Source: Candidatus Aminicenantes bacterium
GTDB taxonomy: Bacteria; Acidobacteriota; Aminicenantia; Aminicenantales; Aminicenantaceae
Length of the DNA stretch: 64,000 nucleotides
Direction: 5' to 3'
Assembly (NCBI GenBank): GCA_014727835.1
Contig: WJMT01000124.1
Location: 17,508-81,507 of the forward strand
This document shows positions 7,711 to 17,990 of the stretch, piece by piece. The position numbers and the translations under genes are program-made. Under the pieces are notes generated by a model. It was not told where the DNA came from. It searched no databases and saw only the letters and a list, made by a program, of their open reading frames with translations. Numbering within the stretch: position 1 is the stretch's first letter; every line of letters begins with the position of its first letter.

Positions 7711-9039
7711 TCAAAAAATGAGAGTGATGGAGGTTTCTGAATAAGGTTGGGAATGCACTCCAATAGACCCTTTGTGAAGTCTCATGATCTGTCTGGATAG
7801 ACTCAGTCCGATTCCAGAACCCCCTTCTTTGGTGGAGAAAAAGGGGATGAATATTTTTTCCATGTTTTCATTTGGAATGCCCGGGCCATTATCTGTCACT
7901 TCTAAAATGATCTTTCCTCTTTTATCCAGCCGGGCTTCCAGGTTGACTTCAGCGTTTTCACATCCCTCTACTGCCTGTTGAGCATTGAGCAAAAGATTGA
8001 TCAGCACCTGTTCAATGAGTTCTGTATCAGCAGTGAGTTCTAGAGTCTGCGGCTGGACTTTGACTAAAAACTGGATTCCTTTATCTTTGAAGTCTTTCTG
8101 CATCAGTTTTTCCACACGCAAGAAGAGTTCTTTGATTTGAAATATTTGAAAATTTGGTTTTTTGATCAAGGTCAGATTCCGGTAGGCATCCACAAAATGC
8201 ATCAAACCCTGACTTCTTTTCTTGATGGTTTGGGCTGCGTCTTTGATATCTGTCAGAGCTTCTGAAACCATATTTTTATGGACCAGGCCGTTTATGGTGG
8301 ATGCCAGAGAGGATATGGGGGTCACGGAATTCATGATTTCGTGAGTGAGAACTCGGATCAATTTTTGCCAGGCTTCAATTTCAGTCTCCTCCAGTTCGCT
8401 GTGGATGTTTTGTAAAGAGACCAGAAAATATTTGTTCCCTCCCAGTTTGAACTCTGTTCCATAGACAGACAGGTGCAGAGTCTCATTGTTAATGTCAATC
8501 TTCACCGTGTTTTTTTCCCTTGGCTTGAGTTTGAGAAGGGTATTGACCAGCTTGGGACTGAGAGATTGGAGAGATTTTATGTTTTTGAGCTGATTAATCC
8601 CAAGAAGCTGTTTGGCTGCTTTATTTATGAGTTCCACTTCTCCATCAGGCTGGAATACGATCAATCCCACTCCGATGTGTCTCACCACTGTCTGCAGGTA
8701 ACGCGCTTGTTGCTCTTTCTCGGTCCGGGTTTTGCGAAAAGCATTCATGACTTCAGTGAATGAATTTTTCAGAGAGTCAAAAGTTTGGCCTCTCCCCTCA
8801 TACTTAAAAGACTGAGAAAAATCGCTGTATCTGATAGAGTCAAAAAAATGAGTCAAGTCTCGGTTTGTTTTTTCTACATAGTGAATCAGTGCATAGGTTT
8901 GGTAGATGATCAAGAAACCGAGTATGATCAAAGCGCTGTATAAAGTGGTCTGAGTCAGGATCAGGAAAAAACTCAAAAGGGTCAATCCTAGAATGCAAAT
9001 GCGCAGGATGCAGTTGATTCTAAAATTTTTATAGACCAT
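7711..9039 (-). CDS. sensor histidine kinase (two closely spaced TM helices, PAS, HisKA, HATPase)
   Basis: H-box [17 protein letters not shown]-box [12 protein letters not shown]-boxes DNGPGI and GGSGIGLSL. The TM helices (residues ~8-28 and ~33-53) are joined only by TQTT, so there is no periplasmic domain. The ATG overlaps the upstream regulator gene by 11 nt. Confidence 0.85.
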
Positions 9040-10411
9040 ATTTTTCCATTCTCCGGTACAGTGAAGCTCTGGAAATCCCTAGTTCATCTGAGGTTTTGGA
9101 AACATTTCCGTTGTGTTTATCTAAGGCCTTATGAATGGCTATTTTTTCAAGTTCTGCCAGATTAAGGTCTTCGTATTCCAGAGAATCTCCTTTGGATTCT
9201 GGAGAAGAAAAGAAAAAATCTGAAGGCTGAAGAGTGAGAGATTCGCTCATGATCACCGCCCGTTCTATGGCATGTTGGAGCTCCCTCACATTTCCGGGCC
9301 ATGAATACTTTTCCAGTCTCTTCAAGGTGGCGTGGCTGATCTTATCTATGGATTTGTTGTATTTTTTGGAATAGATATTCAGAAAATGTTCAGCTAAAAG
9401 TGGAATGTCTTGGACTCTTTCTCTAAGAGGCGGGATCCTGATCTCAACAGTATTGATTCGATAGAGAAGGTCCTGCCGGAATTGGTCATGGGTGACCATC
9501 TTATGGATATTCATGTTTGTGGCGCAGATAAGACGGACATCGATTTCTATGGTCTTGTTTGAGCCGAGACGAGTCACTTTTCTGTTTTCAATGACAGTGA
9601 GCAGCTTGGCCTGGAGTGTTAATGGGAGATTCCCGATTTCGTCCAGAAACAGAGTCCCTCCTGATGCAATTTCGAATCGGCCGGCCCGGTCTTCTTTGGC
9701 ATCTGTAAAAGCTCCCTTGACGTGGCCGAAGAGCTCACTCTCAAAAAGAGTTTCGCTTAGGGCGCCCATATCCACGCTGATAAAGATCTCTCCGGCTCTG
9801 GGAGACTGTCTGTGAAGTTCTCTGGCCACCAGTTCTTTGCCGGTTCCATTTTCGCCGAGGATCAACACATTGGCGTCTGTTTGGGCGACTTTTTGAATAT
9901 CAGAAAAGACTTGTTGTATGGCCGGGCTTTTTCCTATGAATTCATGGAAGGGCTGGTCCAAATCCTGACTGAGCTGCTTTTGCTTTGAACGCAGATTTTT
10001 GGCTTCTGTACGGCTTTGTCTTAAATTGAGTGCTGCAGAAAGAGTGGCGATCAGTCTTTCATTTTGCCAGGGTTTGAGAATAAAATCCGTAGCCCCTTCC
10101 TTGATCGCTTTCACGGCCATTTCCACATCTCCATAGGCTGTGATCAAAACGACCACAGCACTGGGATCCAGTTCTACGATCTGATCCAGCCAATGGAATC
10201 CTTCAGCGCCGCTGGTCGCTCCTTTGGCAAAATTCATATCAAGAAAAATGACATCATAATTGTCATTCTTTAAAAGCGAGGGAATCGAGTCAGGGTTCTT
10301 TTCCGTGTGAACCTGCCCCACATGTCTTTTGAGAAGCAGCCGGGCAGCTTGAAGAATGTCTTCATCATCATCAATGACCAAAATTTTTCCATACTTTTTT
10401 TTCATGTTCAC
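9029..10411 (-). CDS. sigma-54-dependent response regulator (NtrC family enhancer-binding protein)
   Basis: Receiver domain ([17 protein letters not shown]). AAA+ domain with Walker A GENGTGKE, a GAFTGA-loop variant GAFTDA, and [11 protein letters not shown]-terminal Fis-type [33 protein letters not shown]. Confidence 0.9.
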
Positions 10412-10457
10412 ATCTCTCCTGATTTCAGTGTTACTCTCATTTCAAGTTCATTTATTA

Positions 10458-10473
10458 TGCAAGATACGTGCCT
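10458..10473 (-). promoter_or_regulatory. sigma-54 promoter candidate for the regulator-kinase operon
   Basis: The reverse complement reads AGGCACG-TATC-TTGCA, matching 15/16 positions of TGGCACG-N4-TTGCA. It lies ~47 nt upstream of the ATG at 10411. Confidence 0.65.
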
Positions 10474-15735: not shown

Positions 15736-16404
15736 ATGATCAAATGCAAAAAAATCAACAAATATTATTCCTCTGGATTTGTCAAGACTTATGCGCTGAG
15801 GAACATAGACCTGGATATCAAAGACGGAGAATTCATCACCATCATGGGACCTTCCGGGGCTGGCAAGTCCACCCTTCTTTATATTCTGGGGATGCTCGAT
15901 AAGCCTTCCAAGGGAGAATATTATTTCTTTGATAAGCCGGTCCATAGGATGACCGAAAGGCAGCTCACAGATCTTCATAAAAATCATATCGGTTTTGTCT
16001 TTCAGCAGTATCATCTTATAGATGACCTGACTGTGTATGAAAACCTGGAAACCCCTCTTCTTTATAAAAAAGTCAAAGGATCAGAGCGAAAGGGTAAAGT
16101 GTGTGACATGCTGGACCGATTCCATATCGTAGGGAAAAAGAATCTTTTTCCCAATCAACTTTCCGGGGGCCAGCAGCAGAAAGTGGCTGTGGCCAGAGCT
16201 GTGATCATCAATCCCAAATTGATTTTGGCCGATGAACCAACAGGAAACTTGAACACCAAAGAAGGGGAAGAGGTGATGGAGCTTCTCAAAGAGCTCAATG
16301 AAGGGGGAACCACCATCATCCAGGTCACTCACTCAGAAAAAAATGCCGCTTACGGACAGAGAATCATCAATCTTCTGGACGGGTGGATCGTGGATGAGCT
16401 TTAG
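15736..16404 (+). CDS. ABC transporter ATP-binding protein, MacB/LolD type (ATPase 2, paralogue of 12068-12757)
   Basis: Walker [10 protein letters not shown], signature [14 protein letters not shown], Walker [14 protein letters not shown]-loop VTHS. RBS GGAAGGGAG. Confidence 0.9.
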
Positions 16405-16430
16405 GAAGAAAAATCATTAGGAGATTCAAA

Positions 16431-17990
16431 ATGAGAAAAATAGCGACGGCAGTCATTATTTCAATTTTACTTGTATCCGTGGTCCTGTTCAGTGGACAGG
16501 AAAATGAAAGAAACCTCACTCTGGAAGAGTCCATTTTCCTGGCATTGAAAAACAACCTCAGTATAGCAGTGGAGGTCTTGAATCCGGAGCTGGCTGACAT
16601 CTCTGCCTCTGTGTCCAAAGAAATGTTTCTTCCTTCGCTTTCATTCAATTACAGCACCCAGGAGACCAACAATCCCTCTTATTCGTGGATCGATGCTGCG
16701 GGTCAGATCACCTCCATGTATGACGATTACAGTGTTCAATTGCAGCAGCTTTTTCCCACAGGCGGAACTCTTTCCGCATCTCTTTATTCTTACAAAAGTG
16801 ACACCAACCAGAAGTTTCAGACAATAAATCCCCGGTTTGGTTCCCGGCTTTCCTTCCAATTCACTCAGCCTCTTTTAAGGGATTTTGGTTTCAAAGTGAC
16901 CCGGAGAGAAATCGTTGTGGCCAATAACAACGCTCAAATATCAGAAGCCAATTTCAAGGAATCTTTGATTCAGACCATCTATGAAGTGGAACAAGCCTAT
17001 TGGGAATATGTGTACAGCCTTGAAAATTTAAAGGCGATGGAGCAGTCTCTTACGCTGGCGCGCGACTTGCTGGCCAAAAACAAAAGAGAAGCGGAAGTGG
17101 GGATGCTGGCTCCCATTGAGGTGTTGAGTGCTGAATCTGAAGTGGCGGCCAGAGAGGCGGATATCATCACTGCAGAGAATCTGGTCAAAAACAATGGGGA
17201 TACTCTCAAAACCATCATCAATCTTGCTGCTGAAGCAGAGATAAAGAGTCAAGAAATCACACCTGTGGATAAGCCGACTTATGAGCCCAGAGAAATCAGC
17301 ATTGATGAAGCCCTGGCTGTGGGGATGCAGAACCGCCCTGATCTTGAGGCCAGCCGGATTGATATCAAAAGCAGAGATGTTGAATTGAGTTATGCCAAGA
17401 ACCAGCTTCTTCCTGGATTGAATCTGCAGGCTTCGTATTGGAGTCCGGGGATTTCTGGGACTCAGATCCTGTACAAAGACAACAATCCTCTCACTGATGA
17501 GGTCGTGGGAACCATCTCCGGAGATTCCACCAAAGCTCTGGAAGATGCTTTTTCCTTTGCCTATGAAAACTGGTCTGTGGGATTGACTCTATCCATCCCT
17601 GTGGAGACCATTTTTTCACGGGCCCAGTTGGCTCAGGCAAAGGTTAATTTCAGACAGGCGAAATTAAGACTTCAGAACGATGAACAGCAGGCTTTTTTAG
17701 AGATCAGAAACGCAGTACGGAACGTCAAGTCCAATTACAAGCGCGTGCGGGCTTATAAAGCAGCCAGAGAACTGGCTGAGAGAACCCTGAAAGCCGAGGA
17801 GAAAAAGCTGGAAGTGGGACTGTCCACCAATTACACTGTGCTTCAATATCAGCGGGACCTCGCAGATGCCCGGAGCAATGAAATCAGAGCCATCATTGAC
17901 TACAATCTGGCTTTAGCCGCACTGGATCAATCTATGGGGACTACTCTGGAGAATAAGGGAATCCAATTTTCCCAAGTCTCCACCCTCTAA
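16431..17990 (+). CDS. TolC-family outer-membrane efflux protein
   Basis: Signal peptide and two OEP repeats (LTLEESIFLALKNNLSI.. and ISIDEALAVGMQNRPDLEAS..). RBS AGGAG. Confidence 0.85.
   Translation: MRKIATAVIISILLVSVVLFSGQENERNLTLEESIFLALKNNLSIAVEVLNPELADISASVSKEMFLPSLSFNYSTQETNNPSYSWIDAAGQITSMYDDYSVQLQQLFPTGGTLSASLYSYKSDTNQKFQTINPRFGSRLSFQFTQPLLRDFGFKVTRREIVVANNNAQISEANFKESLIQTIYEVEQAYWEYVYSLENLKAMEQSLTLARDLLAKNKREAEVGMLAPIEVLSAESEVAAREADIITAENLVKNNGDTLKTIINLAAEAEIKSQEITPVDKPTYEPREISIDEALAVGMQNRPDLEASRIDIKSRDVELSYAKNQLLPGLNLQASYWSPGISGTQILYKDNNPLTDEVVGTISGDSTKALEDAFSFAYENWSVGLTLSIPVETIFSRAQLAQAKVNFRQAKLRLQNDEQQAFLEIRNAVRNVKSNYKRVRAYKAARELAERTLKAEEKKLEVGLSTNYTVLQYQRDLADARSNEIRAIIDYNLALAALDQSMGTTLENKGIQFSQVSTL

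Follow-up and report, generated by a model that had tools for sequence, protein, structure and literature searches.

Gene Content of the Locus

A DNA window of 64,000 nt from Candidatus Aminicenantes (Acidobacteriota; assembly GCA_014727835.1, contig WJMT01000124.1, positions 17,508-81,507 of the forward strand) was analyzed for a locus in which a histidine kinase and a sigma-54 enhancer-binding protein (EBP) are encoded divergently from the operon of a MacB-type efflux pump (table 1). Judged from its sequence, the locus is highly likely to belong to a dedicated sigma-54 pump regulon, and the module appears to act like an inducible tripartite MacB-type exporter under two-component control. The proteins of the window were taken from a listing of open reading frames (ORFs) and scanned with Pfam and NCBIfam. 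ORFs and scans agree with the layout proposed in a preliminary description of the same DNA, that is, a kinase, an NtrC-type regulator and a divergent operon of seven genes.

Table 1. Positions of the Kinase-Activator Genes, the Pump Operon, the Orphan Permease and Their Predicted Regulatory Sites
Feature	Position	Strand	Evidence or remark
Histidine kinase, 442 aa	7711..9039	-	Pfam, NCBIfam, hydropathy, AlphaFold, Foldseek, family alignments
Sigma-54 enhancer-binding response regulator, REC + Sigma54_activat + HTH_8	9029..10405	-	Pfam (strong scores), NCBIfam
Candidate autoregulatory sigma-54-type promoter AGGCACGTATCTTGCA, facing the regulator-kinase operon	10458..10473	-	Motif scan
Putative enhancer site 1 (UAS1), palindrome TGTCCGATATTGAACA	10535..10550	.	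Motif
Putative enhancer site 2 (UAS2), palindrome TGTTCCCAAGTGAACA	10556..10571	.	Motif
Sigma-54 promoter TGGCACATTTATTGCA of the pump operon	10625..10640	+	Exact consensus match
Periplasmic adaptor, membrane fusion protein of HlyD/MacA type	10741..11997	+	Pfam, NCBIfam
ABC ATPase 1, MacB/LolD/DarD-like nucleotide-binding domain	12068..12757	+	Pfam, NCBIfam
Small ORF s1, 82 aa, soluble, without known family	12776..13024	+	Conserved in L002
Duplicated FtsX permease, ADOP-like, 774 aa, 2x MacB_PCD + 2x FtsX	13055..15379	+	Pfam, NCBIfam
Small ORF s2, 90 aa, soluble, without known family	15424..15696	+	Homologue search
ABC ATPase 2, 57% identical to ATPase 1	15736..16404	+	Pfam, NCBIfam
Outer-membrane factor, TolC/OEP family	16431..17990	+	Pfam, NCBIfam
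Perfect enhancer palindrome TGTCCGATAGCGGACA upstream of the orphan permease	29585..29600	.	Motif scan
Degenerate second enhancer site TGGTCTAAAATGGACA, 21 bp past the palindrome	29606..29621	.	Motif scan
Predicted sigma-54 promoter TGGCATGAAAATTGCT of the orphan permease	29674..29689	+	Motif scan
Orphan ADOP-like duplicated FtsX permease, 788 aa	29739..32105	+	Second predicted target of the same activator

The Histidine Kinase and Its Family

The kinase had been described as "sensor-less", with two transmembrane (TM) helices joined by about four residues. Its hydropathy profile has two N-terminal hydrophobic stretches, centered near residues 19 and 35-45, and in the AlphaFold model (pLDDT 67) residues 31-33 form the loop between helices 2-30 and 34-68; both give a hairpin only. 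The outer loop of this hairpin measures 3-4 residues, in line with the earlier claim, and its length is invariant, as 46 aligned family members (37-58% identity) have no insertion there. Based on the hydropathy, the modeled loop and the lack of insertions, a periplasmic domain is absent from the kinase and from its family as a whole. Positive charges at both ends of the hairpin (K4, R7 and R13; K57 and R60) fit an N-in, C-in topology.

The term "sensor-less" thus stands with respect to an extracytoplasmic domain and is overstated otherwise, since the kinase possesses a cytoplasmic PAS-like domain (approximately residues 124-212) behind a HAMP-like helical linker (~53-122). The predicted order is TM hairpin (~8-30 and 34-52), linker, PAS-like domain, DHp and CA (ATPase) domain, the last of which matches HATPase_c; the H-box carries H233. 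In the AlphaFold model a low-confidence helical linker up to ~122 is followed by an alpha/beta domain (124-212), DHp (218-291) and CA. The score against Pfam PAS_8 is 20.3 bits, just under the cut-off of 21.8. The best Foldseek matches in the PDB are kinases of PAS-DHp-CA build, namely WalK, YF1-type LOV kinases, VicK and ThkA, with 360-430 columns aligned. The PAS region showed no conserved motif for cofactor binding. None of the curated NCBIfam models was passed by the kinase, the best ones (AtoS, PnpS and ZraS) all being far under their cut-offs.

An exhaustive HMMER search (E<=1e-30, clusters at 50% identity) returned a family of 2342 cluster representatives. The best 150 of these are all ~415-468 aa long, except for one fragment of 349 aa, and most of them align from inside their first ten residues. 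In the family alignments the TM residues of the hairpin are variable and poorly conserved between phyla, and a cytoplasmic juxtamembrane motif, LIRYVExTNRxL..F...I...DFSQ.F, is kept.

The family alignment was also scanned against one genome per GTDB species, which gave 80 homologous loci, referred to below by L numbers where needed. They belong to Acidobacteriota, Ignavibacteriota, Bacteroidota (Bacteroidales and Cytophagales), Rhodothermales, Salinibacter, Balneola, Latescibacterota, Zixibacteria, Kryptoniota, Gemmatimonadota, Cloacimonadota, Glassbacteria and Opitutales. L001 comes from the complete Aminicenantes genome CP070825.1, and the kinase of L002 is 83% identical to that of the window.

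The Sigma-54 Activator

The domain composition of the regulator agrees with its earlier assignment to the sigma-54 EBPs. Its ORF opens at GTG 10411, and the ATG at 10405, which follows an AGGAGA ribosome-binding site, is the likely start. The receiver aspartate is D58 (ORF numbering), and the protein also has an AAA+ domain and a helix-turn-helix of Fis type. The EBP gene and the start of the kinase overlap by 11 nt, and the two genes are translationally coupled. The window contains this single EBP gene.

The loop that contacts sigma-54 (residues ~232-237) reads GAFTDA in place of GAFTGA. Among 78 EBP orthologues from the homologous loci (L001-L083), GAFTDA is found in 59, GSFTDA in nine and GAYTDA in five, and the canonical GAFTGA in only two. 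By this comparison, the change from G to D is a signature of the whole activator family.

Promoters and Enhancer Sites

The exact sigma-54 promoter reported for the pump operon at 10625 is a full match to the consensus; it is identical in L001 and the site is conserved in related loci. The motif TGGCAY-N5-TTGCW occurs five times in the window, whereas shuffles give 0.14 expected occurrences. The two putative enhancer sites are 21 bp apart and lie 74 nt (UAS1) and 53 nt (UAS2) upstream of the -24 element, and the adaptor ATG follows ~100 nt downstream of the promoter. As in the NtrC class, the target promoter therefore combines -24 GG and -12 GC elements with upstream enhancer sites.

In order to follow the enhancer across loci, the motif TGTNCG-N4-CGNACA was scanned with one mismatch allowed. 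It was found at 48 of 67 loci and is conserved across phyla; its density rises from 0.09 per kb over all 1.38 Mb to 0.93 per kb (~10-fold) within 900 nt upstream of the EBP gene. The motif usually comes as two copies, and paired sites 21 bp apart are also present in L002, L005, L044, L063, L064, L068, L073, L078 and L079. The gap from the distal site to TGGCAY is quantized: it measures 85-88 nt in Bacteroidales, whereas Acidobacteriota, Ignavibacteria, Cytophagales and others have 73-77 nt; the second site, where present, is ~21 bp closer to the promoter. Such a gap is the helical phasing to be expected of a genuine enhancer-promoter unit, and the conserved motif is very probably bound by this EBP.

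A second promoter of sigma-54 type faces the EBP gene, with counterparts in L001 (AGGCACGTATTTTGCA), L002 (AGGCACATATCTTGCA) and L004 and L005 (CGGCAC-N5-TTGCA in both). Its conservation in these four loci suggests positive autoregulation of the regulator-kinase operon from the shared enhancer. In L002 (8190-8635) this promoter is ~450 nt from the EBP start, as opposed to ~50 nt in the window, with an extra stretch of ~400 nt. In Bacteroidales loci, sites of sigma-54 type that seemed to face the EBP were discarded, as their coordinates placed them in the EBP gene itself, where the conserved N-terminus (GKILVID) is encoded.

Between 7000 and 19800, a scan for sigma-70 promoters gave 21 sites versus 17.9 expected and did not resolve operon boundaries; a scan for terminators gave 21 sites versus 13.0 expected (standard deviation 3.0) and marked no operon end.

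Conservation of the Gene Neighborhood

Among the loci in which the upstream flank of the kinase gene is present, almost all have the EBP gene directly before it. For the neighborhood counts, the ORFs of each locus were searched with the window proteins, and the base consisted of the 57 loci whose sequence extends 3 kb or more beyond the activator on its upstream side. A divergent MacB-type cluster directly adjoins the EBP-kinase pair in 40 of them, from ~10 phyla, so that the co-localization of kinase homologues with FtsX/MacB-type pumps, on which the preliminary description depended, is borne out. Of these 40 linked loci, 33 contain an adaptor and 34 an ATPase; duplicated permeases, one to three per locus, are found in 27, and an outer-membrane protein (OMP) in only four. 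In three loci (L012, L074 and L078) permeases are the sole neighbors of the kinase pair. By these comparisons the module is real, ancient and widespread in Acidobacteriota, the FCB group and neighboring phyla.

The nearest relatives of the window, four loci of Aminicenantes type, differ from it in one respect. L001 has kept the adaptor alone beside the EBP-kinase pair, and the operons are adaptor, ATPase, s1, ATPase and OMP in L002, adaptor, ATPase, s2, ATPase and OMP in L004, and adaptor, ATPase, ATPase and OMP in L005. With none of the four having a permease, the one in the window operon is the exception in its own lineage.

Distance matrices of the module proteins correlate with that of the kinase at r=0.82 for the EBP, r=0.73 for the adaptor and 0.59 for the ATPase. 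All module proteins co-diverge, and the mirror-tree comparison was consequently kept for exploratory use; as proof of kinase-pump co-evolution it was rejected, since shared ancestry is inseparable from interaction. In the same exploratory comparison, made without a significance test, the juxtamembrane linker retains a residual covariation of ~0.3 with adaptor and ATPase.

Small Proteins of the Pump Operon

Both s1 and s2 are, on comparative grounds, real genes. Pfam returned no match for s1, which has a counterpart with 72% identity at the same position of L002. For s2 no Pfam or NCBIfam family was found, and Pfam matches at E<=1 were only noise; a homologue search gave 400 matches at E<=0.001, mostly 70-94% identical among the matches listed. 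The gene is placed inside the pump clusters of nine loci from several phyla, for instance at 4923-5201 in L004, 9682-9978 in L005, 5786-6082 in L035, 3042-3314 in L043 and 3735-3992 in L050. In L005 and L035 the s2 gene is preceded by a separate enhancer and predicted sigma-54 promoter. s2 is a conserved member of the predicted regulon. Its AlphaFold model is of low confidence (pLDDT 52) and no fold is readable from it. The idea that s1 and s2 are diverged paralogues was rejected (hhalign probability 0.3%).

Orphan Permeases and the Wider Predicted Regulon

The window encodes two MacB-type ATPases only, and four ADOP-like duplicated permeases, all scoring 302-313 bits against a cut-off of 622 for TIGR03434 (308 bits for the operon copy at 13055-15379). 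The orphan copy at 29739 lies ~19 kb from the regulatory region of the pump operon and repeats its enhancer-promoter spacing: the enhancer is followed after 73 nt by the predicted promoter, and this after 50 nt by the permease ATG.

The remaining two permeases (36368-38941 and 48863-51472; 857 and 869 aa) each have an N-terminal extension of ~72 aa and come directly after PadR-family genes of 109 or 106 aa (pairs spanning 36042-38941 and 48535-51472). In the first pair (36042-38941), the stop and start codons overlap as ATGA.

Additional units of enhancer and promoter were located in related loci. They precede orphan permeases (L005 and L075), adaptors (L051, L065 and L081), ATPase and OMP pairs downstream of the kinase (L068 and L073) and OMP-like genes (L038 and L045). 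In L001 (5802-6567), a pair of enhancer sites and TGGCATATTTCTTGCT stand before an ATC_hydrolase (PF14196) gene that adjoins the single adaptor gene. No other predicted target of the enhancer falls outside the pump parts, s2 and the regulator itself.

Other Features of the Window

Three further exact matches to TGGCAY-N5-TTGCW were recorded. One (4630-4645, plus strand) is 36 nt upstream of a FecR/DUF6600 gene (4681-6633). Another (28673-28688, minus strand) is within an M1-peptidase gene, on the opposite strand. The last (42460-42475, minus strand) falls in the 3′-terminal part of an MFS gene, with a small ORF and a pyruvate:ferredoxin oxidoreductase gene (39841-41574) downstream of the match. 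No TGTNCG-N4-CGNACA enhancer was found near these three sites, which probably either belong to other activators or are due to chance.

A second histidine kinase, with a CHASE8 periplasmic domain, PAS and HATPase_c, is encoded at 25215-27113 with no response regulator adjoining. It is followed by an M1-family peptidase gene (27146-29521), just upstream of the orphan permease at 29739. Convergent with the kinase gene of the locus is that of a 307-aa protein (6748-7671) in which a domain resembling the C-terminal one of pyruvate kinase (PK_C) is joined to a diadenylate cyclase (DAC) domain of DisA type.

The region 3′ of the pump operon encodes an epimerase and an MFS transporter and has two ORFs that match no family. 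An exporter dedicated to a nearby biosynthetic product, as hinted by similarity to DarBCD, was considered and rejected, given that no biosynthetic genes flank the operon and the Dar models are far under their cut-offs.

Comparison with Known Systems

The module resembles the BceRS-BceAB systems of Firmicutes, which serve in the sensing and detoxification of antimicrobial peptides and in which the kinase induces the transporter and the transporter is the sensor (PMC11009047). In both cases a two-TM kinase with a minimal outer loop is linked to an ABC transporter of the FtsX/MacB superfamily. The differences are several. The regulator is an NtrC-type sigma-54 activator here and of OmpR type in Bce. 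The Bce kinase consists of hairpin, HAMP-like region and DHp-CA only, whereas the present one has in addition a cytoplasmic PAS-like domain. BceB has 10 TM helices and one large extracellular domain, in contrast to a fused dimer of 2x(4TM + periplasmic core domain) served by two separate ATPases. Moreover, the present system is a diderm, tripartite one that includes an adaptor and a TolC-like duct; its carriers are Acidobacteriota, the FCB group and other phyla, and its permease is often not encoded beside the kinase. Regulator class, permease architecture and the extra input domain of the kinase all fail to agree with the Bce family, of which the module is not a member.

In architecture, the PhoR-PhoB/PstSCAB/PhoU system of Proteobacteria is closer to this kinase than BceS-BceAB is. 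PhoR too is built of a hairpin without a sensing loop, a linker, a cytoplasmic PAS domain, DHp and CA, and the state of an ABC transporter is relayed to it by a small cytoplasmic protein, which links the transporter ATPase to the PAS domain, its docking site (PMC9239213, PMC13577022). Together with the Bce work (PMC11009047), these studies are precedents for transporter-coupled hairpin kinases. NCBIfam gave sub-threshold matches to PhoR and PnpS over the PAS-DHp-CA region; against the PhoR model TIGR02966 the kinase reaches 86 bits with a cut-off of 334, and what is shared is the architecture alone. On the other hand, Pst is an importer and PhoB an OmpR-type regulator of sigma-70 promoters, and no similarity between s2 and PhoU was detectable.

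The pump itself is comparable to MacAB-TolC, DevBCA-TolC and DarBCD, in which an adaptor, a MacB-superfamily permease with a periplasmic core domain, an ABC ATPase and an outer-membrane factor are likewise encoded together. The best NCBIfam similarities of the pump proteins are to DarC, DarD, DarB, MacB and DevA, every family model being under its cut-off. MacB proper is a homodimer with fused nucleotide-binding and transmembrane domains, unlike the two distinct, separate ATPases and the internally duplicated, single-chain permease found here; the PRK10535 model scores 231 bits for the ATPase and 49 bits for the permease, versus a cut-off of 966. No sigma-54 EBP is known to regulate macAB.

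The permeases have the duplicated FtsX architecture of ADOP (TIGR03434) over their full length, and ADOP is found in the same phylum. The two orphan copies behind PadR genes display the classical ADOP pairing. By contrast, the operon copy is not an orphan, and the orphan copy at 29739 is predicted to be under sigma-54/EBP control and is not PadR-linked. By the curated cut-offs, the proteins of the module are not NtrYX, PhoR, MacB proper or ADOP.

The preliminary description had named no experimental account of such a module, and literature searches, within the paper library used, likewise found none. However, a link between sigma-54 and FtsX-type permeases with their ATPases had already been made computationally: a survey of 2025 reported sigma-54 promoters enriched at COG0577 and COG1136 genes of Bacteroidia, Opitutia and gamma-proteobacteria, and called this the first such evidence (PMC12316311). 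That survey gives enrichment at the level of COGs only and names no kinase or activator, enhancer motif, Acidobacteriota or sensing model. Francke et al. 2011 (PMC3162934) do not mention FtsX, HlyD, ABC or efflux. As far as can be read from the sequences, the unusual features of the module are its GAFTDA activator of sigma-54, its hairpin-PAS kinase, a phased and conserved enhancer, and core operons without a permease whose regulon includes orphan permeases.

Proposed Regulatory Model and Signal Perception

The best explanation of these data, at a probability of roughly 0.45, is a self-amplifying sigma-54 two-component regulon for MacB-type pumps with a signal input that depends on the pump. 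In detail, the kinase would autophosphorylate at H233 and pass the phosphate to D58 of the activator, following the NtrC paradigm. The activator would oligomerize on the two enhancer sites and drive the ATP-dependent opening of the sigma-54 holoenzyme at both divergent promoters and at that of the orphan permease. The result would be more activator and kinase, more pump and more of the extra permease. The orphan permease may use the ATPases, adaptor and duct of the operon in trans, these parts being possibly common to several interchangeable permeases. Such sharing is proposed because the operons of the closest relatives are devoid of a permease and permeases with the same enhancer are encoded elsewhere.

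As regards the input, MacB-type pumps take their substrates from the periplasm or the outer leaflet. The kinase has no periplasmic part and is blind to that compartment, so that a signal must come through the membrane, the cytoplasm or the pump. For these two reasons perception through the working pump is favored; by whichever partner it may occur, its probability is set below even. The state of the pump ATPase or adaptor might be read by the juxtamembrane linker and PAS domain of the kinase, possibly with s2 as an adaptor; PhoR-PstSCAB-PhoU and BceS-BceAB follow this logic and are the two precedents in its favor. Transporter sensing, if real, is more likely to proceed by this route of ATPase, adaptor or s2 with linker and PAS than by TM contacts with the permease. 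The complete form of the proposal, in which the kinase reads the state of a MacB-type pump through ATPase or adaptor with linker and PAS (perhaps with s2) and drives a sigma-54 regulon with shared ATPases for orphan permeases, is rather unlikely as it stands.

Several observations count against this explanation. Genetic linkage is to be expected for any dedicated regulator and is no proof of physical coupling, and no pump component is universal beside the kinase. In 17 of the 57 loci no pump adjoins it; the neighbors there are a GH3 glycosidase, a LuxR-type regulator, a solute-binding protein, an M1 peptidase and a TonB receptor. All four of the nearest relatives are without a permease by the kinase. 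When EBP distances are regressed out in the exploratory comparison, the TM hairpin has partial correlations of only 0.10 with the adaptor and 0.02 with the ATPase. A cytoplasmic ligand might be bound by the PAS-like domain itself. The -12 TTGC of Bacteroidales is weak, although their -24 TGGCAY is retained. Within the 64 kb of the window no rpoN was seen. Finally, that the GAFTDA variant is functional is an assumption, made because the predicted targets have clear -24/-12 promoters.

The strongest alternative is that the kinase detects its cue directly, with hairpin and HAMP-like linker responding to membrane perturbation or the PAS-like domain to a cytoplasmic or redox ligand, and with the pump as output only. 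The position of the PAS-like domain directly upstream of DHp, the variable pump set near the kinase with its 17 unlinked loci, and a TM hairpin that is unconserved between phyla and does not covary with the pump proteins would all be in agreement with it. Set against these are the periplasmic or outer-leaflet substrates of MacB-type pumps, which would be invisible to such a kinase, and the PAS region without an identified cofactor motif; furthermore, the invariant minimal loop recalls hairpin kinases that rely on accessory membrane proteins (PMC11009047). Direct sensing is accordingly held to be quite possible, if doubtful.

A strict Bce-type module, in which the FtsX permease is the sensor, forms a TM-TM complex with the kinase and reports flux, in line with the preliminary description, is improbable. 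The short-loop hairpin and the Bce precedent speak for it, as does the co-localization of FtsX-family permeases in 27 of the 57 loci, where in the three cases given above they are the only neighbors. The permease-less neighborhoods of the closest relatives (L001, L002, L004 and L005) weaken the idea of the permease as sensor. In addition, BceS has no PAS domain, the TM hairpin is the part of the kinase with the lowest residual covariation to pump proteins, and regulator family and permease architecture are unlike those of Bce.

That the pair is an NtrY/NtrX-type nitrogen or redox regulator placed beside a pump by chance is hardly credible and was rejected: JGI labels several kinase homologues "NtrY" and the PAS-DHp-CA core is similar, but the regulator scores 315 bits against a cut-off of 600 for the curated NtrX model, no NtrY model was passed, the N-terminus is a two-TM hairpin and not of the multi-TM NtrY type, the predicted enhancer targets are pump parts, s2 or the regulator save for the hydrolase gene of L001, and the linkage to pumps is kept across ~10 phyla.

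Significance for the Duplicated Permeases

Duplicated FtsX/ADOP-like permeases are highly expanded and little-understood transporters of Acidobacteriota, Bacteroidota and related phyla. The regulon described here offers three handles on them, namely a cognate two-component system, a conserved enhancer motif from which the entire regulon may be predicted in any genome of these phyla, and a model in which an operon without a permease (adaptor, two ATPases and duct) serves orphan permeases under sigma-54 control. Cultured carriers, among them Salinibacter, Pontibacter and Rufibacter, make experiments feasible. If the sharing of ATPases, adaptor and duct is true, it would explain how orphan permeases of ADOP type are powered. 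If perception does depend on the pump, transporter-coupled ("flux") sensing would extend past the Bce systems of Firmicutes and the Pho system to sigma-54 regulators and tripartite efflux pumps.

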